From assembly GCA_039000165.1 (NCBI GenBank), contig JAWBTW010000004.1:48520-62198 (forward strand): a stretch of 13,679 nt of DNA, written 5' to 3'. The notes under the pieces are model-generated. The model was not told the DNA's origin and did no database searches. It saw only the letters and a program-made list of their open reading frames with translations. Below are positions 223-13,647 of this stretch, in pieces. A program made the translations under genes and the position numbers. The stretch is from Candidatus Aenigmatarchaeota archaeon (GTDB lineage Archaea > Aenigmatarchaeota > Aenigmatarchaeia > CG10238-14 > SCSR01). The number at the start of each line of letters is the position of its first letter. The first letter of the stretch is position 1.

Positions 223-1590
223 TTAAGGTGGTTCTGGTGGTGGAGGTGGTGGAGGTGGAGGTAATGGGGGCTGAGGAGGTTGGGGTCCTGGGGGTGACGG
301 AGGCTGTGGCTGAGGAGGTGGCGACGCACACTCACATTCTCCGTCTATAGTGGAAGGGATAGCTTCTCCTAAACAATTTTTAGTACAATACACTTCCAAA
401 GGACAATCACATTCATAACCAGGATAAACCCAATAACATTCGCCAGACCCTGGAGGAATTTCTACGCATACTTTATCTACACCAGTTGGAATGTATCTAC
501 AAGACTCTGTTTTGTAGCAATCTAATTTTCTGAGATAAGTAGTAACATCAACCTTAAAAATCAATTGCTGAGGACCTTTCGGAGTAGAAACATAATATTT
601 TGTATCATTACAACCAAAAGTTACCTTTACTGCGCCTTTTACTTCAGCAAAGTATGCGCAAGTTCCGCTACATTCTTGTAAGCTTGCACAAGGCTTAGAA
701 AATGGTATTTTAACACAATCTTTGCACATAGGTGCATCTTTCCATTCTTTACAACCTTGATAATCTTCCTCTTCAGGGCAATCGCTTTTTCCATAAAAAC
801 AGCAGGAAATACTGTAGTAACACTTGACATAAGGGTCTGAAAATGTTCTTTCTAAATTCCTTACTTCCTCTTCTGCCATTTGGATTACTGCTGACAAAAA
901 TGGCAAACAATTGTTGCATCCTCCCATACCATTACAATAGCATATTTTTGACAGGTTTCCACACATATGTTGAATATAGTTCGGCCCGTAAGTTTTTGCC
1001 CACTCGCTAAACTTTCTGTACATATACCAAAATCTAAGTAAAGAAATTCTCTCTGTTAAATCTCCTAGAGAAGTAATGTTTTCTTCACCAAGTGATATAA
1101 AAATGTTGTTTCCTAAAGCAATAGTCTCAAAACTCTCGTCAAACTTTCCACTTTCAACTTCCTGTTGAGAAACTTTAAAATCAACACAACTTACTTCTGA
1201 AAGATTAACTTTCAATATATCTGACTGGTTGAAATTTTTAATGTAATAATTAATAAAGCGTAGAGTTTCATTCGACAAGAAAAACCTAACTTCTTCCACG
1301 CTTGGCACGTCTACCTGATTACAAATCCAGCTTCTAGGATAGTTTTCCCCTGTTTGAGATACTCCTCCTCTTTTCCCAACTTCACTTACTCCTGAATGAA
1401 CAGAAAAATGAAGGGAAATTCTTTCAAAAAATTTTACATAATCAAGGTAAATGGAAGCTTTAAAATAGCTTAAACTTTTAACAATACTTTCTCTAAACTC
1501 GAAGCTAATAAAGAAGAAGAAAATTAGAGAAATAATTCCTATCGCTACCATTACGCTTAATATTAGTAAGCTAGATTGAGACTTTACCAT
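223..1590 (-). CDS. Pilin-like surface protein (KSQ leader plus hydrophobic helix) with Cys-rich C-half and poly-Pro tail
   Basis: MVKSQ followed by the hydrophobic stretch SSLLILSVMVAIGIISLIFFFFISF; six N-x-S/T sequons; dense Cys in the C-terminal half; ends PPPQPQPPSPPGPQPPQPPLPPPPPPPPEPP; overlaps the upstream stop. Confidence 0.7.
   Translation of the reverse strand: MVKSQSSLLILSVMVAIGIISLIFFFFISFEFRESIVKSLSYFKASIYLDYVKFFERISLHFSVHSGVSEVGKRGGVSQTGENYPRSWICNQVDVPSVEEVRFFLSNETLRFINYYIKNFNQSDILKVNLSEVSCVDFKVSQQEVESGKFDESFETIALGNNIFISLGEENITSLGDLTERISLLRFWYMYRKFSEWAKTYGPNYIQHMCGNLSKICYCNGMGGCNNCLPFLSAVIQMAEEEVRNLERTFSDPYVKCYYSISCCFYGKSDCPEEEDYQGCKEWKDAPMCKDCVKIPFSKPCASLQECSGTCAYFAEVKGAVKVTFGCNDTKYYVSTPKGPQQLIFKVDVTTYLRKLDCYKTESCRYIPTGVDKVCVEIPPGSGECYWVYPGYECDCPLEVYCTKNCLGEAIPSTIDGECECASPPPQPQPPSPPGPQPPQPPLPPPPPPPPPEPP
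226..320 (-). repeat. Low-complexity proline-codon tract (GGW/GGN repeats on + strand)
   Basis: ggtggttctggtggtggaggtggtggaggtggagg...; GC-rich patch in an AT-rich window, encoding the poly-Pro tail. Confidence 0.9.
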
Positions 1591-2735
1591 ACTATCAGCT
1601 CTGAGTTAATCGTTTCACCCTCATAATTAGGGTATGGAAGCTTGATGGTAAAAGTGTAAATGTTTTTAGCCGAAGTTGGAGCTTCATAACCAAAAACTAT
1701 AGGTGGTTTTGAGGGAATAATTTTTATTATTTCTTCTACGGCTTCTGCAGGATTAACTACTTCTAAATCAAAATACTTTCCTTTACACTCGGTTGAAATG
1801 TTTTTAAGAGCATCGACTACTTTTTTCACTCCGCATAAATCACAGCTTCCTTGAGTTGGCTGGGGAGGAGAATAGGTTGGGTAGTAATACTCACACCATT
1901 GTTTCCATGCATTAACACAGCTATTTACACTAAAGTTTCCTTTTAAAGTAAAGATAGAAATGTTATGTTGTTTACATGCCTTTAGCCCATTATCAAAACT
2001 ATCTTGAAAATTGCCCATTTTATCGCTATCTGTACATATACAAACATCACTTCCTGTGGTTAGTTCGTCGGTTATTATTATTATCGCAGTTAAGTTAAGT
2101 TTTTCAGCTAAGCATTTAATTCCATTACCCCAATCTTCTTCAGTTTGCTTAAGAAGTGAACAACCAGTTAATTCAAAGCAGTCATCTTTAACTTTTGTGT
2201 TTTTAAATATTTCGCAACCCCAAGAAGAGCCTGCACCTTTAAGTGTGTATATCCTTATCTTTATTTTTTTCTTTAAGGCTATTAGGTTTATTTCTTCTAT
2301 CTTATCTTTTATAACATCTATTTCATCTTTTAAACTTCCTGAAGTGTCTAATAAAAAAGCGACATTAACCCATTCTTTTGGTACATAAACGATAAACTTC
2401 CAGTTTTTATCAAAATATCTCTCAAAAAATTGTGGCAAAATTTCAGAGACATTAATTACACCATAGCCTTCTCCGTAGTTAACAGTTAAATTTTCAGAAA
2501 CTACAGCATCAGAAACTATAGAAGCTAAAGACCTTTCTGTGCCGTAAATTTTAGAAGATTGGAAAGTAATAACTGCATCGCTCACTCTATTATAAATTTG
2601 CTCTCTAGTTAGCAATTCTTTTTGAGTTTCACTTATAGAAACATAACGAAAATAAAGAATTGAAAGAAGGATGGTTACACCAACCACAAGAACAAGTATT
2701 TCTACTATTTCTAAAGTTTGAGCTTTATGAAACAA
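1584..2735 (-). CDS. Prepilin-like protein (KA|Q) with vWA/MIDAS domain, putative adhesin
   Basis: TTG start preceded by GGAGG; MFHKAQ plus hydrophobic ILVLVVGVTILLSILYF; VAFLLDTSGSL (DxSxS at 2334-2348) and IIIITDE are vWA MIDAS elements; six N-x-S/T sequons. Confidence 0.8.
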   Translation of the reverse strand: MFHKAQTLEIVEILVLVVGVTILLSILYFRYVSISETQKELLTREQIYNRVSDAVITFQSSKIYGTERSLASIVSDAVVSENLTVNYGEGYGVINVSEILPQFFERYFDKNWKFIVYVPKEWVNVAFLLDTSGSLKDEIDVIKDKIEEINLIALKKKIKIRIYTLKGAGSSWGCEIFKNTKVKDDCFELTGCSLLKQTEEDWGNGIKCLAEKLNLTAIIIITDELTTGSDVCICTDSDKMGNFQDSFDNGLKACKQHNISIFTLKGNFSVNSCVNAWKQWCEYYYPTYSPPQPTQGSCDLCGVKKVVDALKNISTECKGKYFDLEVVNPAEAVEEIIKIIPSKPPIVFGYEAPTSAKNIYTFTIKLPYPNYEGETINSELIVW

Positions 2736-3492
2736 AAACTTCTCCTCCTATTTTCTTGATTGAAATTTCGTAACTTCCTGGTTTAAGTCTATCCATATGC
2801 GTTTTGCAATAGACTTTTCTACAAACTATTTTCGAGTATAGCTCCTGACAAATTCTATCTTCTTCGGCAACCAACGGATAAGAAGTAGTTATTCTTTGCC
2901 TTAAAGAAAAACCTGTATCGCATACTCTGTTTATTAAGCCAGCAAATTCTTCAAGCTCTCCTTTCACAACTTTTAATCTTAGCATTCCTGGTTGTAAAAA
3001 TGAAGAGTTTATTCTTATAGAAACAGGGAAAGATATTTCTACGGATTTTTTAAGTGCATTTCCTTCTGAAAAATTTTGAGAACCAAACCTCCATACTCTA
3101 CTATTTTGCTTAAAATTATGTATACTAGTGTCAATTTGCGATTCAAAAGATTCTATAAAAACTTCATAACCATAAGCGTAACTTTTTGCACATTCTGGTT
3201 CAATTTCTTTATACTTGGAAGAAAATTCCAAAATTTTATTTAAATCTAAAACTTTTTGGGTAACGTTAGAGAAAGTGTAAAAAAAACTGTTTTCTTCTTG
3301 GTATGCTAAGCAAGAAGAAGATGTTGTTAAAAGTTGCGAAATAGTTGTAGCTTTTTCTAACATTTCTAAGTCAGACATAAGCTGTGCATTAGTTTGGGTT
3401 ATTGAAGTTATTTGATTGATGAAAATTGAGATTACGATTAGGATTAACACTAGAAATATTCCTTTCATTAAAAAACTAAGCTGGGCTTTCAT
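2725..3492 (-). CDS. Prepilin-like protein (KA|Q class III signal)
   Basis: MKAQLSFLMKGIFLVLILIVISIFI; AGGAG upstream of the ATG; paired Cys; sequons NVT, NFS and NSS. Confidence 0.75.
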   Translation of the reverse strand: MKAQLSFLMKGIFLVLILIVISIFINQITSITQTNAQLMSDLEMLEKATTISQLLTTSSSCLAYQEENSFFYTFSNVTQKVLDLNKILEFSSKYKEIEPECAKSYAYGYEVFIESFESQIDTSIHNFKQNSRVWRFGSQNFSEGNALKKSVEISFPVSIRINSSFLQPGMLRLKVVKGELEEFAGLINRVCDTGFSLRQRITTSYPLVAEEDRICQELYSKIVCRKVYCKTHMDRLKPGSYEISIKKIGGEVFVS

Positions 3493-4120
3493 AACTTGCT
3501 CTCCTTGACTTCCACACGATAATAAAAATTAAAGCTAAGATTATAGCCACAACAACAAAATAAATGTATATAGAAAAAGATGGTGGTTTTATTTTACAAT
3601 CTTGAGGACAATTTTCATAATTTTCTTCTAAATTTTCTTCACAAACTCCATTCCCACAATGACAATCTAATGGGCAGTTTTCATAATTTTCGTACAATAA
3701 AGAATCGCAAGCTCCATCTCTGTTACACCATGCTATTTCAAACAAGAATATTTTTTTATCTTTGTGATAGATTTCAATTGTACTTGCATCCTCAATTAAA
3801 GGAAGTTTAAGTAAAAGTGGTGAAAACTCTCTTTCAAGAAGCATCGGGCCTTTATCTGTAGTTACATAAACTTCAAATATAACTCCCCCTAAAAATCGGT
3901 CGAAAAGTACTCTACCATTTTTATCTAAAATTTTAATAGAGTAGTTTGAGGATGAAGGAAAATCCGTAGGAATTCCTGAACCCAAAGAAAACTCTTTTAA
4001 AATTACTGTATCATTTTTATAAATTTCAAGAAAGAGTATGAATAGTGTTGGTCTATCTTTAGCAAAGGATAAAGTAGAAAATAAAATTGAAAATGTTAAA
4101 AATACTGCTAAAATTTTTAT
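3476..4120 (-). CDS. Secreted, C-terminally membrane-anchored protein with two CxxxGxCx(n)ENYENCPxDC repeats; start likely at ATA 4120 rather than TTG 3985
   Basis: The frame is open upstream of 3985 and reads (I/M)KILAVFLTFSILFSTLSFA|KDRPT..., a Sec-type signal peptide. Repeats CNRDGACDSLLYENYENCPLDC and CGNGVCEENLEENYENCPQDC; C-terminal TM IYIYFVVVAIILALIFIIVW followed by KSRR. Confidence 0.75.
   Translation of the reverse strand: MKILAVFLTFSILFSTLSFAKDRPTLFILFLEIYKNDTVILKEFSLGSGIPTDFPSSSNYSIKILDKNGRVLFDRFLGGVIFEVYVTTDKGPMLLEREFSPLLLKLPLIEDASTIEIYHKDKKIFLFEIAWCNRDGACDSLLYENYENCPLDCHCGNGVCEENLEENYENCPQDCKIKPPSFSIYIYFVVVAIILALIFIIVWKSRRASYESPA
3612..3691 (-). repeat. 14-nt direct repeat ttttcataattttc (3612-3625 and 3678-3691) within the ENYEN codons
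   Basis: Two copies 66 nt (22 codons) apart, consistent with an intragenic duplication. Confidence 0.85.
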
Positions 4121-4121
4121 A

Positions 4122-5540
4122 TCAACACCCCCTAAGGTATTGTGAGATTGAAGACAATTTTCCTCCGCAATAACTTATATCACCCTTCAGCCATTTAAAC
4201 GAGTCGTCAGAAAAATATTTCTGAGTGCCATAACACATTATGTATTCAGAGTTAAAAATATTTTGGTTTGGACATTTAGCTGGTCTGGCTAAATTACATT
4301 CATGACATAATTGTAAGGTATGACCAATCTCATGAGCAACTGTTCCTGCAGGATTGGGAGGACCACCTTGCGAAGCACAAATTGATTTATACCATGTAGC
4401 ACTAGCAAAACCATCCGTACAGCTATTCCAATCCCAAGGTCCGCATCCACAAATTATTCCACCAAAAAAAGGCCAACCGACCTTGCTTATGCCGACAATT
4501 TTATCCCAATTACCAATACCTAAGACAGTATTTACACACTCGATAGCCAAAGTTACACACTCGTCACACGGTGAACTACACTTTATTTGGCATTTTGGGT
4601 TTTGAGTTGGTGTTATTATCTTTAAATCTATTCTATCTGGGCAATTCCTAAAAGGACTTTTATCAACCCAGAATGGAAATGCATGTTTTTGGACAAAATC
4701 TAAATATTCTTTCTCATCTGAGAGGGTAGCATCAAAATTTAAAGGTACGTAAACTAATTTCCATTTTCCTATACATTCATTATCATATTCATTTTCATCC
4801 ATACACCTTGCTTCTCCATTTTTTGGATTTTCGCACCATTTTGGTTTATCTCCTGGGCAGCAATGTTTCTCTGAGCAGATTGGTTTATCAGAAGGGCAGC
4901 AAATATTTCCTTGAGAATCTCTCCATAAACCAGAATCTGTAGAACCTAAACAAACACTTTCAGCAGGACAAACAGGAGGATTATCGCATTGCTTACTAGA
5001 ATTCAGATACTTTGAACAACAAGCTAAAGAATCAGGAGCGTATTCTCCGTTAGGAGCACAATTTTGATTGCAAGTATATTTATCTTTTTGACCCCAACAA
5101 AAACCTGAACAACAAGCTAAAGAAAAATAACAAGCTTCATCATTTTCCAAACATCTTCCCATAATAAAAATCTTGTTTTCCATTTTGGCTATTGTAATTT
5201 TTTTACTATCTTCAAAAAAATTGCTAACTATTTCTGGCATTTGTTTTGAAAAGCTTGCTGTTTTGTTCAAGTTTTTATCATTAACAAAAACTGTATTATT
5301 TTCTATTTTAACGTAATATCTGACTAAAGGCGGGTAATAAACAAAAACTACATCTCCACTAGTTGCTATTGCTTTGTCTATTACAGCTTCTAAATCTTTA
5401 GCAAATATTACAACAACCTCTTCCTTAGCAATTTGTGTTTGAACGTTGTAGAAAGAGAGTAGTTGATAAACAGTTATGCCAGAAGCGACCAAAACTCCAA
5501 TTATTAATATCGTTTCTGTAATCCCAAACTGAGCTTTCAT
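4122..5540 (-). CDS. Prepilin-like protein (KA|Q) with Cys-knot repeats and a C-terminal metzincin-type zinc metalloprotease domain
   Basis: MKAQFGITETILIIGVLVASGITVY; HEIGHTLQLCH (4302-4334) followed by a Met-turn-like YIMCY; Cys-rich linker. Confidence 0.8.
   Translation of the reverse strand: MKAQFGITETILIIGVLVASGITVYQLLSFYNVQTQIAKEEVVVIFAKDLEAVIDKAIATSGDVVFVYYPPLVRYYVKIENNTVFVNDKNLNKTASFSKQMPEIVSNFFEDSKKITIAKMENKIFIMGRCLENDEACYFSLACCSGFCWGQKDKYTCNQNCAPNGEYAPDSLACCSKYLNSSKQCDNPPVCPAESVCLGSTDSGLWRDSQGNICCPSDKPICSEKHCCPGDKPKWCENPKNGEARCMDENEYDNECIGKWKLVYVPLNFDATLSDEKEYLDFVQKHAFPFWVDKSPFRNCPDRIDLKIITPTQNPKCQIKCSSPCDECVTLAIECVNTVLGIGNWDKIVGISKVGWPFFGGIICGCGPWDWNSCTDGFASATWYKSICASQGGPPNPAGTVAHEIGHTLQLCHECNLARPAKCPNQNIFNSEYIMCYGTQKYFSDDSFKWLKGDISYCGGKLSSISQYLRGC
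5013..5124 (-). repeat. 19-nt direct repeat tgaacaacaagctaaagaa (5013-5031 and 5106-5124) encoding SLACCS
   Basis: Exact copies 93 nt (31 codons) apart within the protease-pilin gene. Confidence 0.9.
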
Positions 5541-6040
5541 CTAATTGTTATATTGACTTTTTCGCTGCTTATTTTTTTAATTTCTAATTCGTATTCCTTA
5601 AAAGGGGCGCTCCCCAATATTTTGCTCACCGCAACCCAAATATCCTCTTTTTCTGGCAAAACTCCTAGATAAGGCATGGTTAAGTTACAATAAAGTTTTT
5701 GACATCTCAAATAATTTTCATCCTTAAACTGCAAGCATAAGTTATAACCAGAACTTAAATTTTGATTTTTAATTAAATCAACAACTTTTGCTAGAACCTT
5801 TTTTTCGTCTGTAGAGAAAACAACTCTTGTTTGGAAATCGAACCTATAACTTTTAATGATGGAATTGTTTAACTCTTGAACGCAAATAGAGTTTATATCA
5901 GTAAAAAGGTCTGAAAACTGGGACAAACTACTTTGTCTTTGTGAAAAATTAATAGTCGAAGAAATTAAATGATAAGCTATGGATAAAATTAAAATACTTA
6001 TAACGATTCCACCAACTATATAAACCCATACATCTGGCAT
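5537..6040 (-). CDS. Pilin-like protein with N-terminal hydrophobic helix and no basic leader
   Basis: MPDVWVYIVGGIVISILILSIAYHLI; in-frame TAA immediately before the ATG; four Cys; ATGA overlap with the next gene. Confidence 0.65.
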   Translation of the reverse strand: MPDVWVYIVGGIVISILILSIAYHLISSTINFSQRQSSLSQFSDLFTDINSICVQELNNSIIKSYRFDFQTRVVFSTDEKKVLAKVVDLIKNQNLSSGYNLCLQFKDENYLRCQKLYCNLTMPYLGVLPEKEDIWVAVSKILGSAPFKEYELEIKKISSEKVNITIR

Positions 6041-6068
6041 TTAATTTAAAAATAGCTTTTTTAGAATT

Positions 6069-6476
6069 TTAACATTTTATTAGAATCTTCTGTCTCGTAA
6101 AATCGTACTCTAAGAAAACAGATGTTGCTGTAAGATCTTGACAACTCCATTCACAATTTGGATTTGAAAGGGAAAGTGGTTGGGGAAGAGATGAAACACT
6201 TCCTTTAATCACATAGCAAAGACAGGCTTGCCTTAAATTAATTCCACCTGTTTTATGCCAACAGAAATTACAATATTTTTCTAGCACATCTTTTGTTAGA
6301 GTCTCGTCGACAAGCTGAGTTTCACATTTCTCTTCTTCTTCACAAGGTGGGAAAAAACAGGGAAGCTTTATTGAACCTGCTATATTCTTAAGGTTGATAA
6401 TTATCCCTATTATAACTACAGTTGCAACTACAAGAATCAAAACTTTAAATACAGTTTCTAAAGCCATTTCTACCAT
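6069..6476 (-). CDS. Small Cys-rich pilin-like protein (CW-x13-CY family), no basic leader
   Basis: MVEMALETVFKVLILVVATVVIIGIII; CWHKTGGINLRQACLCY; TAATG coupling to the upstream gene. Confidence 0.7.
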   Translation of the reverse strand: MVEMALETVFKVLILVVATVVIIGIIINLKNIAGSIKLPCFFPPCEEEEKCETQLVDETLTKDVLEKYCNFCWHKTGGINLRQACLCYVIKGSVSSLPQPLSLSNPNCEWSCQDLTATSVFLEYDFTRQKILIKC

Positions 6477-6970
6477 TATACCACTTCAATTTTACTTGTT
6501 GTTGCATTATAATAAATTCCTACAGATTTTGGTGTTTCTATATCTCCTATTTTCCATTCAATTATATCTCTATAGTCTGGAGGTAAAAAAGAAGTTACAT
6601 CATCTTTTGTAACTTTTCCGTCAAGCCTTTTCAAAACAATTTCATAGCATGTCATATCGGTTTCTAATCCTACTTTTGCAGTAGTGCTCCAACATGCTAA
6701 GGAATATTCTGCAATCTTTCTTGAGATGAAAGTCACATTCCCACCTTCTAATATTACTGTTTGGAAACCTTGAGAAACTTCACAAAATTCAGGCAAAGAA
6801 GGTCTTAAGGAAGCTGGTAAAGGAAGGAAAGAATTTAAACCAGAAAGAAAGTTACAGTAAATTTTTCTTAGAGAAGGCGAAAATTGTAAACCGATAAAAG
6901 TGATTAAAACAGAAATTGCTACTATAGCTATTAAAATGTAAGCTACTGTGGTTAAGGCTATGCCTTTCAT
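6476..6970 (-). CDS. Prepilin (KG|I class III signal), CW-x13-CY family
   Basis: MKG|IALTTVAYILIAIVAISVLITFIG; CWSTTAKVGLETDMTCY; ATGA overlap. Confidence 0.8.
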   Translation of the reverse strand: MKGIALTTVAYILIAIVAISVLITFIGLQFSPSLRKIYCNFLSGLNSFLPLPASLRPSLPEFCEVSQGFQTVILEGGNVTFISRKIAEYSLACWSTTAKVGLETDMTCYEIVLKRLDGKVTKDDVTSFLPPDYRDIIEWKIGDIETPKSVGIYYNATTSKIEVV

Positions 6971-7350
6971 TCAAACACAACCAAGCTTATTTCTTGTCCT
7001 GTATAATTATATCTGATTTTGATAACATAACTATAGTATTTTTCTAAGGAGTTAAAGTAAGCTCTTACCTTTACTGAAGGAAAATTCTCCATTTCTGTTT
7101 TTTCTATTCTTTCAGAAGAGTTTATTCTCACTATATAACAATCATCGTTATAAATATCTTTACCAAAATCATGTTTGCTCCAACAATTTTCTATACAGTT
7201 TTTTAAAGAGCCTAAAACGCTCTGTTTATTGCCTGACAAAAATTCGTTACAAGCTTTTTGTTGAGAACTGTACAAGAATAAAACATACAAATAAACAGAA
7301 AAAACTGCCGCAATAATTAAAATCAAACCCACTAAAATCTTTTCTGCTAT
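6967..7350 (-). CDS. Small pilin-like protein, CW-x13-CY family; start possibly ATA 7350 (track: GTG 7332)
   Basis: (I/M)AEKILVGLILIIAAVFSVYLYVLFLY; CWSKHDFGKDIYNDDCY; GGTGA lies 4 nt upstream of the ATA. Confidence 0.65.
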   Translation of the reverse strand: MAEKILVGLILIIAAVFSVYLYVLFLYSSQQKACNEFLSGNKQSVLGSLKNCIENCWSKHDFGKDIYNDDCYIVRINSSERIEKTEMENFPSVKVRAYFNSLEKYYSYVIKIRYNYTGQEISLVVFE

Positions 7351-7354
7351 GTTA

Positions 7355-9424
7355 TCACCAAAGTTTAATAGATAAACCTAAACTGTAAAACATAGCTAAG
7401 CCTACGAAGGAAATAACACCATAAACTATGATAGCAACCATTAAAGTTTTTCCTATCGTGTAATCTCTTGCAACTTTATCAAAGCCATTCTCTATTCCGC
7501 TCAAAAGCATAGAAAGCAATGCTACAGTTTCAACAGTGTAAATACCTATTGCTGCTTGAAGGACTGTAAGTGGAACTACTGTTTGAAAGCTTCCAATCAA
7601 AATATCTATGAAATTTTCTCCTGAAGGTAAAAGTCCTAAACCCAAACTTTTTTGTATTTCTGCAAATCTTGTAGCAAGAATTTTTAGAATATAAATTATA
7701 AAAATCGTTAAAGAACCAATAATTCCACAAATTATTGGAACTATAAAGCTTGCCTGAAGTCTTATTGCTGAGCGCGTGTTCTCTAGCAACTCTCTTATCT
7801 TAAGCTCAATCCTATGAACATTATCTAAATAATTTGAGATTGTTTTTGCTATAACCCCAAGCAAAACAGTGCTTTTTTCAGAAGCATCTGATAAAACTCT
7901 CATTATATCTTCTATAAGTCGAGATGGATAATACCTTAAAACTCCGTGCGCTTCGTCAAACAAAGCTTTCCTGAAGGTCATTCCAAAATTTCTTATGTTT
8001 ATCAAAAGTTTTGTGAAAAAAGAATGAATAGCTCTAGTTTTCATCCCAAGTTTTTGATATTCTTCCAAACTTTTGTTTATCGCAACCTCTATAGGCATAC
8101 CTTCTGATAAAAAGTTTCCGATAGTTACTAAGCCTGTTCTAAACTCATCTTCTATATTTTTTATCTCGTTTCTTATTTTAATTCTTTGAAAACTTCTTAG
8201 ATAGAAATATGAAATTACCATAGCAGCAAAGCCTGCGGTTATAGAAAAAGTTGAGAGTAAGTTTTCTAATGTAAGGTCTGCTTCTCTTTCAAGTATTACT
8301 TTTTTATCTTCCGCTACCGAAAGAGCAGTATAAAGGTCAACAAAATGTATAATTCCATAAAACATTATGAGTAAGCCTATAAGAATCGAGAAGAAAATTA
8401 TTGGAACGTAAACCTTGGCGCTCCCTAACTTCAACACAAAAAAATCTTCTCTTGGTAGTTCAGGATGCTTAGAAATATCTGGAGAAATGAAAGCTCCTGG
8501 TCTTTTCTTTAATATCCTGTATATGAAAAAAAGGTTTAGCAGGGGTAAAAGAACTGTGTAACCTAAAATTAATTGATAAACATTTACTTGCTGGTTGAGA
8601 AAAATGGCTATCATAGGAAACATAACTATACCAATAGCTGGTAACATTATGCCAAAAATATGGATTAGAGTTAAAGGAGAAGAAATTTCTTCAACATAAC
8701 TTCTCATTCTCTCGTGAGTTGACTCAAGAATGTAATTTAAAGCTTTTATTAGAGTAGCTTCTCTTCTTTCTTCTGTAGCCTCTCTTAAAGTTCCGTACAA
8801 TAAATTTAACGAACGAACAAAATCTTCGTTCCAAATTGCCCATTTTGGCATGTAATAGCTTAAGGCTTCTTCAACTGTTGTATACTTTCCAACTTGCAAA
8901 TCCCACATAGCTTTTTTCATATCGTTTGTTATTGGCCCAGAAATGTGAGTAGTGACAAAGTTAACAGCGCCTTCAAAAGTTGGATTAAGTTTTAAATAAA
9001 TAACCATGTACAAGATTATTTTTATTGATTCATCCCCTGCCTGAATCCTAATAACTTGGGAAAGAAATGAAGGGTAAGTCAAGATGTACCAAAAGATTAT
9101 AAAAGGTAAAATTGAAAGAAAAATTAAGGTTACAAAATCTTGAATTATCAAGGAAAACAAGGCAAAAACTATAAAGGAAAGGATAAGAGCAAGGATTGAA
9201 GAAGAAAAAACTCCTTCTGGGCTTGTTACGAGAGAAGAAAATGCTATATCTGTTTTAAGTTTTTCTTCCAAACTTTTTGGAGGTTTTATCCTTAACTTTT
9301 CTCCTATTTTACAAAACTTTTCGTAAAAAGTTTGTGGTTTTCTTGTTTTTTGCTCAGCTAAAAGGAAATCCAAGTATTCCTTGGAAAAATACTTTTTTTC
9401 CTCTTCTTTTTTCTTTCTTATCAT
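7355..9424 (-). CDS. Type IV pilus/T2SS-F family membrane platform protein (TadC/FlaJ-like, two domains)
   Basis: About 690 aa with several TM clusters and two cytoplasmic T2SSF-like segments (YLKLNPTFEGAV...GPITNDMKKAMWDL...EEAL and IGNFLSEGMPIEVAI...GMTFRKALFD). ATG at 9424; the TTG at 9427 is an alternative. Confidence 0.85.
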   Translation of the reverse strand: MIRKKKEEEKKYFSKEYLDFLLAEQKTRKPQTFYEKFCKIGEKLRIKPPKSLEEKLKTDIAFSSLVTSPEGVFSSSILALILSFIVFALFSLIIQDFVTLIFLSILPFIIFWYILTYPSFLSQVIRIQAGDESIKIILYMVIYLKLNPTFEGAVNFVTTHISGPITNDMKKAMWDLQVGKYTTVEEALSYYMPKWAIWNEDFVRSLNLLYGTLREATEERREATLIKALNYILESTHERMRSYVEEISSPLTLIHIFGIMLPAIGIVMFPMIAIFLNQQVNVYQLILGYTVLLPLLNLFFIYRILKKRPGAFISPDISKHPELPREDFFVLKLGSAKVYVPIIFFSILIGLLIMFYGIIHFVDLYTALSVAEDKKVILEREADLTLENLLSTFSITAGFAAMVISYFYLRSFQRIKIRNEIKNIEDEFRTGLVTIGNFLSEGMPIEVAINKSLEEYQKLGMKTRAIHSFFTKLLINIRNFGMTFRKALFDEAHGVLRYYPSRLIEDIMRVLSDASEKSTVLLGVIAKTISNYLDNVHRIELKIRELLENTRSAIRLQASFIVPIICGIIGSLTIFIIYILKILATRFAEIQKSLGLGLLPSGENFIDILIGSFQTVVPLTVLQAAIGIYTVETVALLSMLLSGIENGFDKVARDYTIGKTLMVAIIVYGVISFVGLAMFYSLGLSIKLW

Positions 9425-9451
9425 CAATTAATTTTTGGCTTTTTCTTGAAT

Positions 9452-9481: not shown

Positions 9482-9772
9482 TTACTTTGCTAAAGTAATG
9501 TCTATGGTTGAAACGTTCACTTTTGTTTTGTCTTCTAGTTCTCTTTCCTCTGTTCCTATCTCTATTGATTTTATTTTTACTCCCTCGACAAACCTTCTTC
9601 TTACTATTTCTGCAACGTCTACTGCTCTACTAATAGCTTTTCCTCTTGCTTTTATGTGGACTTCTGGCTTTCCGTCAGAGAACTGAGTTATTACTCCTAG
9701 AACATAAGCCATAGAAGGTTTTCTTCCTACATAGATTACATTATCCTCAGTTTTTTCTTGCTTTTCTGCCAT
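9482..9772 (-). CDS. albA: DNA/RNA-binding protein Alba
   Basis: [21 protein letters not shown]...[25 protein letters not shown]...IEIGTE...[10 protein letters not shown] is the canonical Alba signature. Confidence 0.97.
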
Positions 9773-9893: not shown

Positions 9894-11300
9894 ATGGTAA
9901 AATGCCCTGTTTGTGATTCAGAGGCTACCCCTTATGTAACTTCAGAAGGCGAAAGAGGGTATGTTTGCTACCATTGTGGAAGTAGATGGAAAGAAACAAA
10001 ACCTGCTAAGAAGACTTCTACACTATCCTTTTTAGGATTTGCTGGAAAAAAAGGTGAGGAAAGCCAAACAGGAATTTTTTCCACCTCTATTCTTTTGAGG
10101 TTTTTAATTTTTCTCGCTGCTCTAATAGTTTCATCTATGCTGGTTCTGTTTTCACTTTTAGGGATGATTCAAAAAGAAATTGCAAAACTCTTCCCAGATT
10201 TCCCAACCTTACAGTATCTTCCTTATGTAGTATTTTTTCTCTTAACAGCTTACGCAGCTCATAAGCTTGCGAAAAAAAGTTTTGTTAGTGGTTTAATTTA
10301 TTGTTTTATCTTAATAATCATTTTAATTCTTGGTAGCGCATTGATAATAGAGCTGCCAAAAATTTTTCCAGGTTGGGCCAATCAAACTATTATCCCTAGT
10401 GATAACAAAGACACAATACCGCAAGCTATAAAAGAAGGTGGGTATTATACTTTTAATTTTAAATGGGGTAGTGAAGAAACCGAGTTCGAAAAAAAGTTTC
10501 CAAGACCTTTCAGGAAAGATAGCGAAACAATTTATACTTACAGCTTTCCTGTTACAATAGAAAACCCAAGTAGAAAGAAGAGTATAAAAGATTTTTACTT
10601 TTTAGAAACAACTGGCTTGTACAACACTTCTGACATGCTGTTCCATAAACTTTATCCAAATTTATGCACTGAAGATAAAAAGTGTGAAATAGCTCCTTTA
10701 GATAATTTGTTAATTACCTTAGATAGTAAAGGTGAAATAAGCTACAAATTCAATACCATAAGAATTAAAGTTTATACAAGTTTGTCTTCTGCAAGTTTTG
10801 GAAACAATACTTTTGTTTTTGTTAGATCCTTAGACGATGAAAAGATTGCACCAACTTATAAGCCTTACACAGGAGAAGGGCCTATTGATATAACTGTTTA
10901 CTTTGCCCCTGTCAGGTATAACTTTGGTTATATGACTGACGAAAAAATAAGAGTTTTTATCCAACTAAGAAATAGAGGCGACGGAACAGGAAAAATTAGT
11001 AAGATATATTTAACAAGAATCGGAAGCCTAGAACTTCTTGAAAAGCCTCAAACCTGCGAAGGTGTAGGCGGAGAGTATCCTCTTTCTTCCCTAGACGAAA
11101 GGAACGAATACTTTGAATTTGTTTCACCTTGGACATTAGCCTCATCTCCCCTCGTTTTTTTCTGTGATTATAGTATACCAGAAAAAATAAGAACAGAGAA
11201 AATATCTTCTCCTTTCGAAACAGTAGCTTTTGTAGTAAGCGTTGAATACACTTATGAAAGAATGCACGAAAAGGAAGTTAGGGCTATGGTTCCAACTTAG
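9894..11300 (+). CDS. Membrane protein: N-terminal zinc ribbon, about 3 TM helices, large extracellular beta-rich domain
   Basis: CPVC-x17-CYHCGSRWKE; three hydrophobic segments; C-terminal domain with alternating hydrophobic strands (FPVTIENP, IRVFIQLRNRGDG, FVVSVEYTY) and sequons NQT, NTS and NNT. Confidence 0.7.
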   Translation: MVKCPVCDSEATPYVTSEGERGYVCYHCGSRWKETKPAKKTSTLSFLGFAGKKGEESQTGIFSTSILLRFLIFLAALIVSSMLVLFSLLGMIQKEIAKLFPDFPTLQYLPYVVFFLLTAYAAHKLAKKSFVSGLIYCFILIIILILGSALIIELPKIFPGWANQTIIPSDNKDTIPQAIKEGGYYTFNFKWGSEETEFEKKFPRPFRKDSETIYTYSFPVTIENPSRKKSIKDFYFLETTGLYNTSDMLFHKLYPNLCTEDKKCEIAPLDNLLITLDSKGEISYKFNTIRIKVYTSLSSASFGNNTFVFVRSLDDEKIAPTYKPYTGEGPIDITVYFAPVRYNFGYMTDEKIRVFIQLRNRGDGTGKISKIYLTRIGSLELLEKPQTCEGVGGEYPLSSLDERNEYFEFVSPWTLASSPLVFFCDYSIPEKIRTEKISSPFETVAFVVSVEYTYERMHEKEVRAMVPT

Positions 11301-11331
11301 GTTTTTATTTAAAGAAAATAAAATTTTTAAT

Positions 11332-12057
11332 ATGGGAAAAGGCGACATTTCTCTAACTGCTATTATTTTTATTGTTTGCGGCATAGCAGTTTTTATTTTT
11401 GCTGCTGCTTGGGTTTTTAAAGTTCCTGGACTTTTTGGTCAGCTGTTGGGTTATATACAAACTGGTTTGATAGCTGTTGGTTCAACAATTTTAGATTTTT
11501 TAATGAAGATTTTTGGAAAATACTTTAGTGCTTTTGCCACGGCTCTGGGGGTAACTTTGAATGTTATTCTCCCAACATTAACTTTACAAGCAGTCTGGCC
11601 AGCTTTGAGTAGTGCTTTGAGTAGAGGTTGGCACATCTTAACTCAAACACATTTTTATGTGGGAAAAACTTTCTTTCAATCAAACTTTTTAGGGCGATGG
11701 AAATTAAGGCTAACAACATTGTGGAAATATTTCAAATCAGGAATAAGCAGACAGGCTATTATAAGCGGTATTAAAAACTTGATTAAAGTTTCTAGTACTA
11801 TGTTTTTTGTCAGCTTAGGTGCCGAGTTAATTTTAACCCATTTAGGCGTTCCTCAATGGATAGATAGTCTGAACTTGCCTGGACAAGGCTTTACTGTAGG
11901 GGGTTTTTCTTGGTCCTGGGGAAGTGCAATTACAGCTGCTGGAAGCACAGCTTTAGGTTTAGGTGTAGTAGCAGCGCTAAACTGGTGGAACCCTGTTGGT
12001 TGGGCAGCTGGTCTTATGATTGCTGGTTCATTCATAATAGGTGGTTTCATTCATTAG
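11332..12057 (+). CDS. Prepilin-like (KG|D) hydrophobic protein with amphipathic helices and a Gly-rich C-terminal hairpin; paralog 1
   Basis: True start probably ATG 11332 (MGKG|DISLTAIIFIVCGIAVFIFAAAW), which avoids overlap with the upstream gene; C-terminal AAGSTALGLGVVAALNWWNPVGWAAGLMIAGSFIIGGFIH. Confidence 0.75.
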   Translation: MGKGDISLTAIIFIVCGIAVFIFAAAWVFKVPGLFGQLLGYIQTGLIAVGSTILDFLMKIFGKYFSAFATALGVTLNVILPTLTLQAVWPALSSALSRGWHILTQTHFYVGKTFFQSNFLGRWKLRLTTLWKYFKSGISRQAIISGIKNLIKVSSTMFFVSLGAELILTHLGVPQWIDSLNLPGQGFTVGGFSWSWGSAITAAGSTALGLGVVAALNWWNPVGWAAGLMIAGSFIIGGFIH

Positions 12058-12841
12058 AGAAAAAAAATTTAACAAAGGTGACGTTAGCCTAGCAGCAATA
12101 ATAGCACTTTTTCTCGGAATTTTAATTTTTGTTGTCATGGTTGGTTATGCTTTCAAAATTCCTGGTTTAGGAGGACAGTATCTTGGGTATGTTTACAATG
12201 CTTTAAGCTTCGCTCTTTCAACTATTTGGGATTTTCTAGGAAAATTAATTGCACCTTTTATTAAAGAAGTACAAAAAGCTACTATCTGGGCTTTCTTAAC
12301 TGTAGGTATAACTCTTCCAGCTGTTATATCAATCAAGTATCTTTTAACTCACGGAGTTACACTCACATGGAAACAGGCTGTAAGAAATTTGTTCAAAATA
12401 TCTTTTTGGAAAGATGTAGGAAGTGCAGTAAAATCAAGTATTTCACACTGGTGGAGTAATGTAAAAGCTGCTTTTTCTTCAGGAATTTGGAAAGGAATAA
12501 AGTATGTAGGAAAATCTTTAATTACAAACGCCTGGAAAATAGCAACAGGTTTTGTCGTCGGCATGTGTGTTGAAATAGGAGTAACTTTCGCCTTAGATTA
12601 TCTGAGTTACAGCTTAGTTGGAAAAGGTTTTGCTCAAGCTATAAATGATATACTACCAGGAGGTGGAGTTTATCAAATTGGCGCAGTAAGTATTTCAGTA
12701 GGGCATGGCGTACAATCAGCAATCTCAGGAGCTGCTTCAGGTGCAGTGATAGGTGCTATGTTTGGTGGACCAATTGGCGCTGTAGTAGGTGCTGCTATTG
12801 GTGGGTTGGTTGGGCTCTTTACTGGCCTTTTCTTCCATTAG
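12041..12841 (+). CDS. Prepilin-like (KG|D) hydrophobic protein with glycine zipper; paralog 2
   Basis: KKFNKG|DVSLAAIIALFLGILIFVVMVG; FKIPGLGGQYLGY aligns with FKVPGLFGQLLGY of paralog 1; C-terminal GAASGAVIGAMFGGPIGAVVGAAIGGLVGLFTG. Confidence 0.78.
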   Translation: MVSFIREKKFNKGDVSLAAIIALFLGILIFVVMVGYAFKIPGLGGQYLGYVYNALSFALSTIWDFLGKLIAPFIKEVQKATIWAFLTVGITLPAVISIKYLLTHGVTLTWKQAVRNLFKISFWKDVGSAVKSSISHWWSNVKAAFSSGIWKGIKYVGKSLITNAWKIATGFVVGMCVEIGVTFALDYLSYSLVGKGFAQAINDILPGGGVYQIGAVSISVGHGVQSAISGAASGAVIGAMFGGPIGAVVGAAIGGLVGLFTGLFFH

Positions 12842-12872
12842 CTTAAAATAAAAGGAAAAATAAAATTTAATT

Positions 12873-13304
12873 ATGAAAGGAGATATGCCTATAGCTTATG
12901 TAGTTGCGTTGATACTAGGAATTGCAGTACTAGTGGCTTTAGGCTATTGGTTCTACACAACCGGAGGAAGACTAGGTCCTACCATATCGCAACAAGATTG
13001 CACAAGAGCTTTCCAACAACATTGTGAGGAATGGAAAAACTCAGGGTTTCTTGACCCAATGCCAGTAAAAGTAAGATGTACTGACTCGACAGCAAGAGCA
13101 TTGAAAAATGTTAACTACGGAGATGAGAGGGGAGACGCATGCCAGATATGTGGTTGTCAAGATACAACAAATTGTGGTGGCTGCTCTGGTAATTGGGCAA
13201 CCGTATACCTTGATGTCTCATCAGGCCAATGGTGGAATTATATAGCTCCAGGCTGTGCAGAAGCCTACGGAATTGAGATTAAGACTACATCAGACTGCGG
13301 ATAG
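12873..13304 (+). CDS. Prepilin (KG|D) with Cys-rich globular head
   Basis: MKG|DMPIAYVVALILGIAVLVALGYWFY; CTRAFQQHCEEW motif; ten Cys. Confidence 0.8.
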   Translation: MKGDMPIAYVVALILGIAVLVALGYWFYTTGGRLGPTISQQDCTRAFQQHCEEWKNSGFLDPMPVKVRCTDSTARALKNVNYGDERGDACQICGCQDTTNCGGCSGNWATVYLDVSSGQWWNYIAPGCAEAYGIEIKTTSDCG

Positions 13305-13326
13305 ACAAACTCAAATGTGAAAAACA

Positions 13327-13647
13327 ATGAAAAAAGGCTTGGCAATTCCAATCTATGTAGTAGTGTTAGTTCTATTGATAGGAATTATTGCAGTCGCGGC
13401 TATAACCATAATAATGAGCTGGCTTTCAGCAAACCGATGTATTGGTTTACAATCTTCTTGTGCTAATGCAAGAATCATGTTTTGTGAAAAATGGCATGAC
13501 CAATGTAGTGATTTTAACTGTAATGAACCAGAATGGGATAGTAGTTTAAAAACATGCGAACTAACAGAAACAGGAAAAGGAACTCAAGAAGTAGCTTGTA
13601 CAAAACCTAATGCAACAGAATGTTCGGAAGCCTTTAAGGAAGATTGA
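13327..13647 (+). CDS. Prepilin (KG|L) with Cys-rich head
   Basis: MKKG|LAIPIYVVVLVLLIGIIAVAAITII; CANARIMFCEKW motif; eight Cys. Confidence 0.8.
   Translation: MKKGLAIPIYVVVLVLLIGIIAVAAITIIMSWLSANRCIGLQSSCANARIMFCEKWHDQCSDFNCNEPEWDSSLKTCELTETGKGTQEVACTKPNATECSEAFKED

Follow-up and report, generated by a model that had tools for sequence, protein, structure and literature searches.

A tandem pair of prepilin-headed, glycine-rich membrane proteins in a type IV filament locus of an Aenigmatarchaeota archaeon

Results

Two overlapping genes encode basic, cysteine-poor paralogs

We analyzed a stretch of 13,679 nucleotides (nt) from a Candidatus Aenigmatarchaeota archaeon (assembly GCA_039000165.1, contig JAWBTW010000004.1, positions 48,520–62,198 of the forward strand; C4:48520-62198 of the genome that we term G000), hereafter the window, and focused on two overlapping genes within it, P1 and P2 (Table 1). 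The genome comprises 783 kb in 25 contigs and is 91.6% complete. An earlier, sequence-only reading of the window had described the two products as tandem paralogous prepilins fused to cationic amphipathic helices and glycine-rich hairpins, and had proposed that they constitute a pilus-delivered, two-component pore, translocon or fusogen. Aligning the two proteins by BLASTP revealed 29% identity over ~250 residues, nearly their full length (E = 5e-15), confirming that they are tandem paralogs, and within the genome each is the sole relative of the other. Apart from the elements listed in Table 1, P1 contains a conserved GVPQ.ID..NLPGQG loop and a tryptophan-containing C-terminal hairpin of small residues with an FIH end, and P2 terminates in a glycine-zipper hairpin with an FFH end. 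The 17-nt overlap of the genes suggests that P1 and P2 are translationally coupled. In the 31-nt spacer that precedes P1 (11301-11331), we noted the element TTTATTTAAA ~20–30 nt upstream of the ATG, which may be a TATA-like element of the archaeal type, driving a leaderless or short-leader transcript that begins at P1.

All motifs that had been quoted from the translations could be located at definite residues. The shared motifs are KGD[IV]SL.AII (P1 residue 3, P2 residue 12), FK[VI]PGL.GQ.LGY (residues 29 and 38), STI.DFL.K (residues 51 and 60) and LPG.G (residues 182 and 205). In the middle region, P1 carries LWKYFKSG at residue 130 and SGIKNLIK at 145, and P2 carries WWSNVKAAFSSGIWKGIKYVGK at residue 137; NWWNPVGW is found at residue 217 of P1 and GGP at residue 242 of P2. 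As claimed, P1 contains 14 lysine and arginine residues and 4 aspartate and glutamate residues. Each protein has one cysteine and lacks N-glycosylation sequons, in agreement with the initial description, whereas the other 12 tabulated window proteins contain 4–36 cysteines and 0–6 sequons. P1 and P2 are thus basic proteins, while most other window products are cysteine-rich and about neutral to acidic. The proposed amphipathic character of the middle region was only partly borne out, as helical moments were high for P2 residues 143–166 but modest for P1.

Table 1. Coordinates of P1, P2 and further features of the window. A slash marks the putative cleavage site; aa, amino acids; ORF, open reading frame; AF2, AlphaFold2; pLDDT, predicted local distance difference test.
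Feature	Coordinates	Strand	Details
P1, 241 aa, ATG start	11332..12057	+	KG/D class-III-like signal; helix 1 at residues 11-29; Lys/Arg-rich variable middle 86-149
P2, 266 aa, GTG start	12041..12841	+	11-residue basic leader before KG/D; helix 1 at residues 17-35; Lys-rich middle 99-166
P1/P2 gene overlap, 17 nt	12041..12057	+	End of P1 / GTG start of P2
P1 prepilin-type N-terminal module: MGKG/D and helix 1	11332..11418	+	Class-III pattern scan
P2 prepilin-type N-terminal module: basic leader, KG/D, helix 1, then FKIPG	12041..12166	+	Class-III scan; BLASTP
P2 glycine-zipper hairpin, residues 223-262	12707..12826	+	Pfam PF13441, 30.7 bits; AF2 pLDDT 80-88
468-aa protein with N-terminal CxxC...CxxC zinc ribbon, hydrophobic segments and large C-terminal domain	9894..11300	+	Ends 31 nt before P1
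143-aa Cys-rich pilin-like protein, MKG/D start	12873..13304	+	Class-III scan; helix 1 closest to helix 1 of P1/P2
106-aa Cys-rich pilin-like protein, MKKG/L start	13327..13647	+	Class-III scan
690-aa polytopic protein	7355..9427	-	Paralog of a 636-aa membrane protein; no Pfam match
Run of nine ORFs, most pilin-like	223..7332	-	All nine Cys-rich (4-36 Cys)

P1 and P2 combine a prepilin-type N-terminus with a polytopic body

Archaeal class III signal peptide proteins are substrates of the peptidases PibD, FlaK or EppA. A permissive class III pattern, together with the requirement for a hydrophobic stretch, was applied to the 1133 ORFs of the genome that encode 80 aa or more. Only 26 ORFs matched, mostly located in four pilin clusters that include the P1/P2 locus, and a Peptidase_A24 gene was detected in the genome above the family cut-off (46 bits; G000 contig C1, ~70.7–71.0 kb). 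Among the 26 candidates, P1 and P2 have five and four hydrophobic segments, respectively, whereas the other 24 have one (23 proteins) or two (one protein). Conversely, in a crude non-overlapping gene set, 82 ORFs were polytopic, that is, they had at least three hydrophobic segments with the first one near the N-terminus. Within this group, the class III pattern was present in P2, in P1 once the conserved ATG at 11332 replaced the longest ORF, and in none of the 80 others; for comparison, 23 of 141 proteins with one or two segments contained it. The prepilin-type head noticed in the sequence-only reading therefore exceeds what would be expected by chance.

Helix 1 of both proteins resembles most closely the corresponding helix of the adjacent 143-aa pilin-like protein. 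The local alignment scores were 46 for P1 and 53 for P2, with the next best of the 24 candidates at 33 and 38, and a background of 89 segments, which includes the proteins compared, gave means of 23.5 and 26.6 and maxima of 43 and 48, respectively. BLASTP likewise aligned the N-termini of P2 and the 143-aa protein, with 14 of 31 residues identical (E = 1e-4). Moreover, all 11 sequences compared, drawn from both paralog groups, have the lysine and the aspartate on either side of the putative cleavage site. As judged from these similarities, P1 and P2 have a pilin-type head that probably derives from a pilin. The same data bear on an unlikely alternative, according to which P1 and P2 are ordinary small membrane proteins (a channel, or a stress or membrane-organising glycine-zipper protein) that merely reside inside a pilin operon and whose KG/D represents a positive-inside N-terminus. 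The lack of the class III pattern in all 80 other polytopic ORFs, the invariant lysine and aspartate and the specific proximity of helix 1 to that of the neighboring pilin argue against this explanation.

A glycine-zipper hairpin occurs in pilin-like genes of related loci

In P2, the predicted GxxxG zipper with its GGP turn was fully recovered, with an uninterrupted i+4 register of glycines that extends over residues 230–262 around GGP at 242–244. Residues 223–262 match the Pfam family Gly-zipper_YMGG (PF13441), scoring 30.7 bits against a curated cut-off of 28.9. P1 has no match in Pfam or NCBIfam and no GxxxGxxxG motif; as read from its translation, its hairpin has lost the GxxxG register. 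Within the P1/P2 family, 8 of 17 members match PF13441 at E ≤ 0.05. Extending the search to the order, we detected the domain in 3 of 118 genomes (G000, G156 and G157), in each case in pilin-like genes of pilus loci. G156 and G157 belong to one genus from another family of the same order, and their match resides in a pilin-like protein of 273 aa encoded in a pilus locus. In its N-terminal part, this protein is homologous to a 171-aa pilin-like protein of the P1/P2 locus (E = 3e-10). The presence of the hairpin in P2 and in the G156/G157 protein implies that pilin-like proteins of related loci have acquired it on at least two occasions. In G157 (C1 ~243.3–244.2 kb; L028, 5336-6157, plus strand), an internal hairpin is 55% identical over 33 residues to that of P2.

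This independent occurrence in a pilin-like gene of a pilus locus is a further point against P1 and P2 being ordinary membrane proteins in a pilin operon. Conversely, that explanation draws support from the fact that glycine zippers are common in non-pilus membrane proteins and lipoproteins, and the Pfam YMGG, OmpA-type and Rick_17kDa_Anti families match 2–8 of the 17 family members. Residues 223–262 of P2 share their hairpin type with the known families (PF13441, PF13436, PF13488 and PF05433, as well as SlyB and TraT), the matches to SlyB and TraT being weak and spanning 41–42 columns. These families are mostly bacterial outer-membrane lipoproteins, whereas the P2 hairpin ends an archaeal, prepilin-headed protein.

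The pair is rare but keeps its place in a pilin operon

Word-indexed searches of 5.8 billion clusters for relatives of P1 and P2 yielded three other P2-type and six other P1-type proteins, 54–69% identical to their counterparts (54–62% for P1 orthologs, 57–69% for P2 orthologs, with the N-terminal extension being common to the P2 group). An exhaustive profile search of 1.84 billion representatives returned nine proteins at E ≤ 0.001, including P1 and P2 themselves. Seven distant members (P0013-P0019) keep the N-terminal helix, the FK(I/V)PG(L/F).G motif, the GVPQ/FAQ-A-I-D-N loop and the C-terminal glycine zipper. For two of them, P0015 and P0016, a single contig is listed, 6709 bases long in both cases, which hints at a shared contig. 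In a tree of 17 family members, the P1 type occupies a long, derived branch and P2 clusters with the distant sequences, with 6 of 14 inner branches left open. We also considered an ancient duplication into two lineages, A and B, and dropped it, as these open branches leave the distant members unresolved.

Full-length matches to the pair were confined to 2 of 371 genomes of the phylum, G000 and G137, which belong to the same genus. The other three matching phylum genomes contained partial matches of 38 residues only, and four further genomes of the genus (69–90% complete) gave no match. In metagenomes, a contig scan with alignment A2 identified one contig (L006) and a 1.3-kb fragment (L007), a scan with alignment A5 found no relative, and a tblastn search of 50,697 phage records found no match. 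The window DNA itself is present in eight hot-spring metagenome runs from two studies, with no RNA runs among these eight. Taken together, the family is very small and patchy, and its general importance is probably limited.

Where the pair is present, its genomic setting is the same. The gene order and the 17-nt overlap recur in an NCBI metagenome-assembled genome (L005; overlap 8408-8424) and in a JGI contig (L006; 10674-10690), and both have the gene for the 468-aa zinc-ribbon protein directly upstream of P1. Accordingly, in all three loci (window, L005 and L006) the pair lies in the same pilin operon, substantiating the proposed link to a pilus locus. A conserved position of this kind argues against ordinary membrane proteins that merely happen to reside there. 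Relatives of the zinc-ribbon protein occur more broadly, in 18 of 70 genomes of the family, and adjoin pilin-like genes in the three cases inspected (G086, G123 and G134), none of which has a P1- or P2-like ORF alongside. The pair therefore appears to be an accessory addition to a more widespread locus. Because comparable pilus loci lack the pair in related genomes, it is dispensable, a point in favor of ordinary membrane proteins.

Charge pattern and structure models point to resident membrane proteins

We compared the distribution of charges in 15 family members, setting aside the partial sequence P0005 and the near-copies P0011 and P0012. In these proteins, the loop between hydrophobic segments 2 and 3 holds most of the lysine and arginine residues (5–24, versus 0–4 aspartate and glutamate residues), and the next loop contains only 0–3 in all 15. 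With the N-terminus of helix 1 inside, a basic loop followed by a loop poor in lysine and arginine would correspond, under the positive-inside rule, to a cytoplasmic and an external loop, respectively. Such a polytopic pattern with positive-inside charges would also be displayed by ordinary membrane proteins. In both paralog groups, conservation is lowest in the cationic middle, which is rich in insertions and deletions and differs in length by tens of residues. Its variability argues against the cationic middle being the functional core of a pore former.

The AF2 models of P1 and P2 are almost wholly helical. For P1, the mean pLDDT of 51.6 was too poor for a structure search. The P2 model reached a mean of 65.5, with residues 161–266 averaging 66–88 per ten-residue block and residues 72–95 and 148–157 falling below 50. 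Foldseek returned no match of P2 in the PDB at E ≤ 0.001 and 59 at E ≤ 10. When aligned with VIA-align, which works independently of Foldseek and for which a Z below 8, or below ~13 for helical proteins, may reflect only a common arrangement, P2 matched first a chain of the TIM22 complex (6lo8_A; Z 7.4, root-mean-square deviation 2.1, 75 residues, model range 162–266), followed by three complex I chains (Z 6.1–6.7), presumably the Tim17-family subunit, and the TIM23 chain 8e1m_A (Z 5.8), all below the caution level. The best structural neighbours of the more confident C-terminal part of the P2 model are thus all integral membrane proteins, which we take as a lead only. Short Foldseek matches of the P2 hairpin, all non-significant (E 3.2–7.0), involved TraT, SlyB, a chain of the Dot/Icm outer-membrane cap and microcin E492. 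As the hairpin resembles resident membrane hairpins and a bacteriocin alike, it cannot decide between them. In the ESM Atlas, the best feature scores (0.78 for P2, 0.77 for P1) stayed below the level that shuffled proteins often reach, and no TM-score exceeded 0.38; glycine-zipper, tape-measure and colicin-like clusters appeared among the rows at 0.75–0.76, too low to serve as evidence. Prediction of a P1–P2 complex (alignments A6 and A7; score 0.00, mark 0.32), run without controls, has no bearing either way on binding.

Searches for pore formers and toxins yield no significant match

For P1 and P2, searches of Pfam, NCBIfam, PHROG and PDB sequences gave no significant match to colicin, translocator or bacteriocin families. 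The colicin pore domain (PF01024) was not found at E ≤ 0.1 for P1 and P2, nor at E ≤ 0.05 in the 17 family members, and the PDB profile search returned nothing below E = 0.43. In PHROGs, the hairpin alone produced weak matches (E = 7.8e-4 and weaker). The colicin channel domain was also not among the listed fold matches, and, with models that are weak outside residues 160–266, a missing match does not indicate a different fold. Together with the variable cationic middle, these results failed to substantiate the proposal of a pore, translocon or fusogen.

In the improbable scenario of a pilus-delivered device, cleaved P1 and P2 would be extracted by the pilus motor via helix 1, carried on the filament, for example at its tip, and inserted into a host membrane as a two-component pore, translocon or fusogen. 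Several features would fit such a device: a pilin-type head homologous to the neighboring pilin, marginal hydrophobicity after helix 1 (with P1 the lowest of 94 polytopic ORFs), a conserved pair with overlapping genes, and a small-genome DPANN archaeon whose locus also encodes lectin-bearing and metalloprotease-like pilin-like proteins. Moreover, the hairpin type also occurs in pore-forming bacteriocins, although the match to microcin E492 is non-significant (E 7.0, 41 columns) and stands beside those to SlyB and TraT. Against delivery by the pilus speak the lack of a significant match to pore formers, translocators or colicins by sequence, and by fold above the caution levels; the cationic region, which is the least conserved and, in all 15 members compared, is consistent with a cytoplasmic loop; the lack, in P1 and P2, of the cysteine-rich, acidic character of the organism's exported pilin domains; and the fact that an immunity-like partner gene is not evident. 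Furthermore, we know of no precedent in type IV filaments for the extraction of four or five hydrophobic segments from the membrane.

A related idea, which appears very improbable, is that P1 and P2 act as a surface-retained glycine-zipper toxin pair, similar to two-peptide or contact-dependent bacteriocins, that is exported by the pilus pathway to kill competitors. Two co-encoded hydrophobic proteins rich in glycine or small residues would suit this idea, as would a Bacteriocin_IIc match (PF10439), but the match is weak (E = 0.0099) and restricted to 1 of 17 family members. Pore-forming hairpin toxins, that is, colicins, microcin E492 and the two-peptide bacteriocins, likewise combine amphipathic cationic helices, a C-terminal glycine/alanine-rich hairpin and, in part, two co-encoded components. 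Two-peptide bacteriocins, however, are short and have a double-glycine leader, a dedicated ABC exporter and a nearby immunity gene, whereas P1 and P2 are far larger, at 241 and 266 aa, and show no double-glycine leader, and the Pfam and NCBIfam searches named no ABC or type I exporter and no immunity protein among the window products.

The surrounding genes form a type IV filament locus

On the plus strand, the zinc-ribbon gene, P1, P2 and the genes for the 143-aa and 106-aa proteins follow each other with gaps of 31, -17, 31 and 22 nt. Beyond the window, the operon continues with four more pilin-like genes, giving six after P2 in total. Genes convergent with the operon encode a pilin-like protein with a Laminin_G_3 domain, a 636-aa membrane protein and a 749-aa T2SSE-family ATPase. 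The 636-aa protein (L004, 4048-5958, minus strand), encoded beside the ATPase 8–12 kb downstream of the window, is 32% identical to the 690-aa polytopic protein of the window (E = 6e-104). Neither has a Pfam match, and the two paralogs are presumably platform proteins of the pilus. In the flanks examined, two platform-like paralogs thus stand against one T2SSE ATPase. Counting at least 12 pilin-like ORFs, the ATPase and the two platform-like paralogs, the window and its flanks are, by gene content, a type IV filament locus. The long ATPase and single-gene platform are reminiscent of 'system 2' as described in section 12 of PMC13705601, a likeness by description.

The zinc-ribbon protein lies between the pilin operon and an Alba gene (9482-9772), identified by family searches, which confirms the archaeal context. 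It received no assignment in Pfam or NCBIfam and may be a conserved, undescribed component of pilus loci. In the minus-strand run, three of the nine ORFs match the class III pattern (1584-2735, 2725-3492 and 6476-6970) and most of the remaining ones start with a similar short N-terminus and hydrophobic helix; a 169-aa ORF (3476-3985) has its hydrophobic segment at the C-terminus instead. A 472-aa pilin-like protein in this run (4122-5540, minus strand) starts with MKA/QFGITE and contains 36 cysteines and a HEIGH motif. Its C-terminal region gave weak matches to reprolysin-type metallopeptidases (best E = 1.7e-4, under the cut-off), and the protein may be enzyme-bearing. The 455-aa cysteine-rich pilin-like protein at 223-1590 (minus strand) ends in a proline-rich tail of ~35 residues, PPPQPQPPSPPGPQPPQPPLPPPPPPPPPEPP. 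In the downstream flank, the 303-aa Laminin_G_3 protein (L004, 2684-3595, minus strand; G000:C4 ~64.8–65.7 kb) combines a class-III-like start with the ConA-like lectin domain (E = 3.8e-19) and has the appearance of an adhesin-type, pilin-like member of this locus.

Two further observations concern the DNA around the pair. Upstream of the window, L003 610-3102 (minus strand; G000:C4 ~36.6–39.1 kb) holds an 830-aa ORF that, by translation alone, has sequences similar to LAGLIDADG homing-endonuclease blocks in its middle and ends that resemble a topoisomerase VI A-type protein, which suggests an intein-containing gene. We also considered recent transfer as the cause of the higher G+C content in 11000-13500 and dropped it, as the rise fits glycine/alanine-rich coding.

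Discussion

We favor, with moderate confidence, the view that P1 and P2 serve a type IV pilus-like machinery as accessory subunits specific to this lineage, and that, with their pilin-derived N-terminus, they are retained in the membrane of the archaeon itself. Their retention is indicated by the four to five hydrophobic segments, the helical models, the positive-inside charges, the variable middle and the basic, cysteine-poor composition. Of the sequence-only reading, the architecture stands, with tandem paralogs, a prepilin-type head, a glycine-rich hairpin and a pilus locus, whereas the pilus-delivered pore gained nothing from any of the tests.

As accessory subunits, P1 and P2 would be recognized, and probably cut, by the A24 prepilin peptidase of the genome, and through the head they could dock onto the platform or the filament base. 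In place of the exported β-rich domain of a pilin, they would have a glycine-rich body that is all-helical and adds three or four hydrophobic segments. In the predicted topology, the N-terminus is cytoplasmic, helix 1 runs outward and the FK(V/I)PGL.G hinge with its helix lies outside. The chain then crosses the membrane a second time, places the variable Lys/Arg-rich loop in the cytoplasm and crosses a third time, so that the conserved K/R-free GVPQ.ID...G loop is outside. The C-terminal glycine-zipper hairpin would then re-enter the membrane, where it may mediate tight helix–helix packing or oligomerisation. Being produced together from overlapping genes, P1 and P2 would probably act as a pair and might, for instance, serve the pilus base as membrane anchor or as partner in assembly.

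Several findings weigh against retention in the membrane or a role in the machinery. The later segments of P1 are the least hydrophobic of 94 crude polytopic ORFs, and P1 and P2 are among the four ORFs with the largest gap in hydrophobicity between helix 1 and the rest, which is unusual for resident membrane proteins. A strong helix 1 combined with marginal, glycine-rich helices would suit an extractable or amphitropic protein. Whether the pair resembles ordinary resident polytopic proteins, which the sequence-only reading had named as an outcome contrary to its own proposal, received a divided answer: the later segments of P2 are ordinary, ranking 26th lowest of 94, and those of P1 are extreme. 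In addition, the AF2 models are weak for both proteins, the synteny is known from three closely related loci only, and the related genomes that keep comparable pilus loci without the pair imply that it is not a core part of the machine. Finally, we know of no polytopic prepilin-type subunit in any pilus system and thus of no direct precedent for the proposed role.

Compared with known systems, P1 and P2 share with archaeal class III prepilins the short basic leader, the [KR][GA]/x site and the hydrophobic helix 1, as well as a pilin operon accompanied by a T2SSE ATPase, platform-like proteins and an A24 gene. Archaeal type IV pilins have one N-terminal helix and an exported, largely β domain, whereas P1 and P2 are all-helical and basic, with three to four more hydrophobic segments, one cysteine and no sequon; they are not structural pilins. 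FlaF and FlaG of the archaellum are a related pair with pilin-like N-terminal helices that stay at the filament base in the membrane. They consist of one membrane helix and a soluble β-sandwich, unlike the helical, multi-segment and glycine-rich P1 and P2, and the Pfam and NCBIfam searches detected no sequence similarity between the pairs; the same searches related P1 and P2 to no named family.

In descriptions of archaeal type IV pilus loci, extra membrane proteins are considered probable components of the machine (Makarova et al., 2016, PMC4858521), and the same is said for system 2 loci (PMC13705601). As far as these descriptions go, such proteins resemble P1 and P2 in lying inside pilin/ATPase/platform loci, sometimes in pairs, and in being presumed machine parts, and they differ in that no prepilin-type head or glycine zipper is described for them. 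According to PMC13705601, type IV filament systems are widespread in the majority of phyla of archaea, the Asgard and DPANN groups being exceptions. By title and abstract, and supplementary tables aside, none of the papers retrieved on archaeal glycine-zipper pilins, on DPANN and Aenigmatarchaeota pili and on class III signal peptides in DPANN describes the architecture of P1 and P2.

By analogy, P1 and P2 could be hydrophobic 'translocator' subunits that are cleaved by the prepilin peptidase, lifted out via the pilin helix, shown on the filament and inserted, by their marginally hydrophobic glycine-zipper helices, into the membrane of a host archaeon, an option that we regard as highly doubtful. 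If true, it would mean that a DPANN symbiont breaches, or fuses with, the membrane of its host by means of a pilus, analogous to the needle-tip translocon of type III secretion.

P1 and P2 have an unusual architecture and belong to a very narrow, undescribed family. Attachment of DPANN archaea to host cells, and their access to them, still await an explanation; in genomes this small, pili are one of only a few organelles that could be responsible. As P1 and P2 show, a prepilin head can be fused to a membrane body of several segments with a glycine zipper. If P1 and P2 stay in the membrane, as we favor, archaeal pili would possess an anchoring or assembly element that has gone unrecognised; should they leave it instead, they would constitute a new kind of pilus-borne, membrane-active device.

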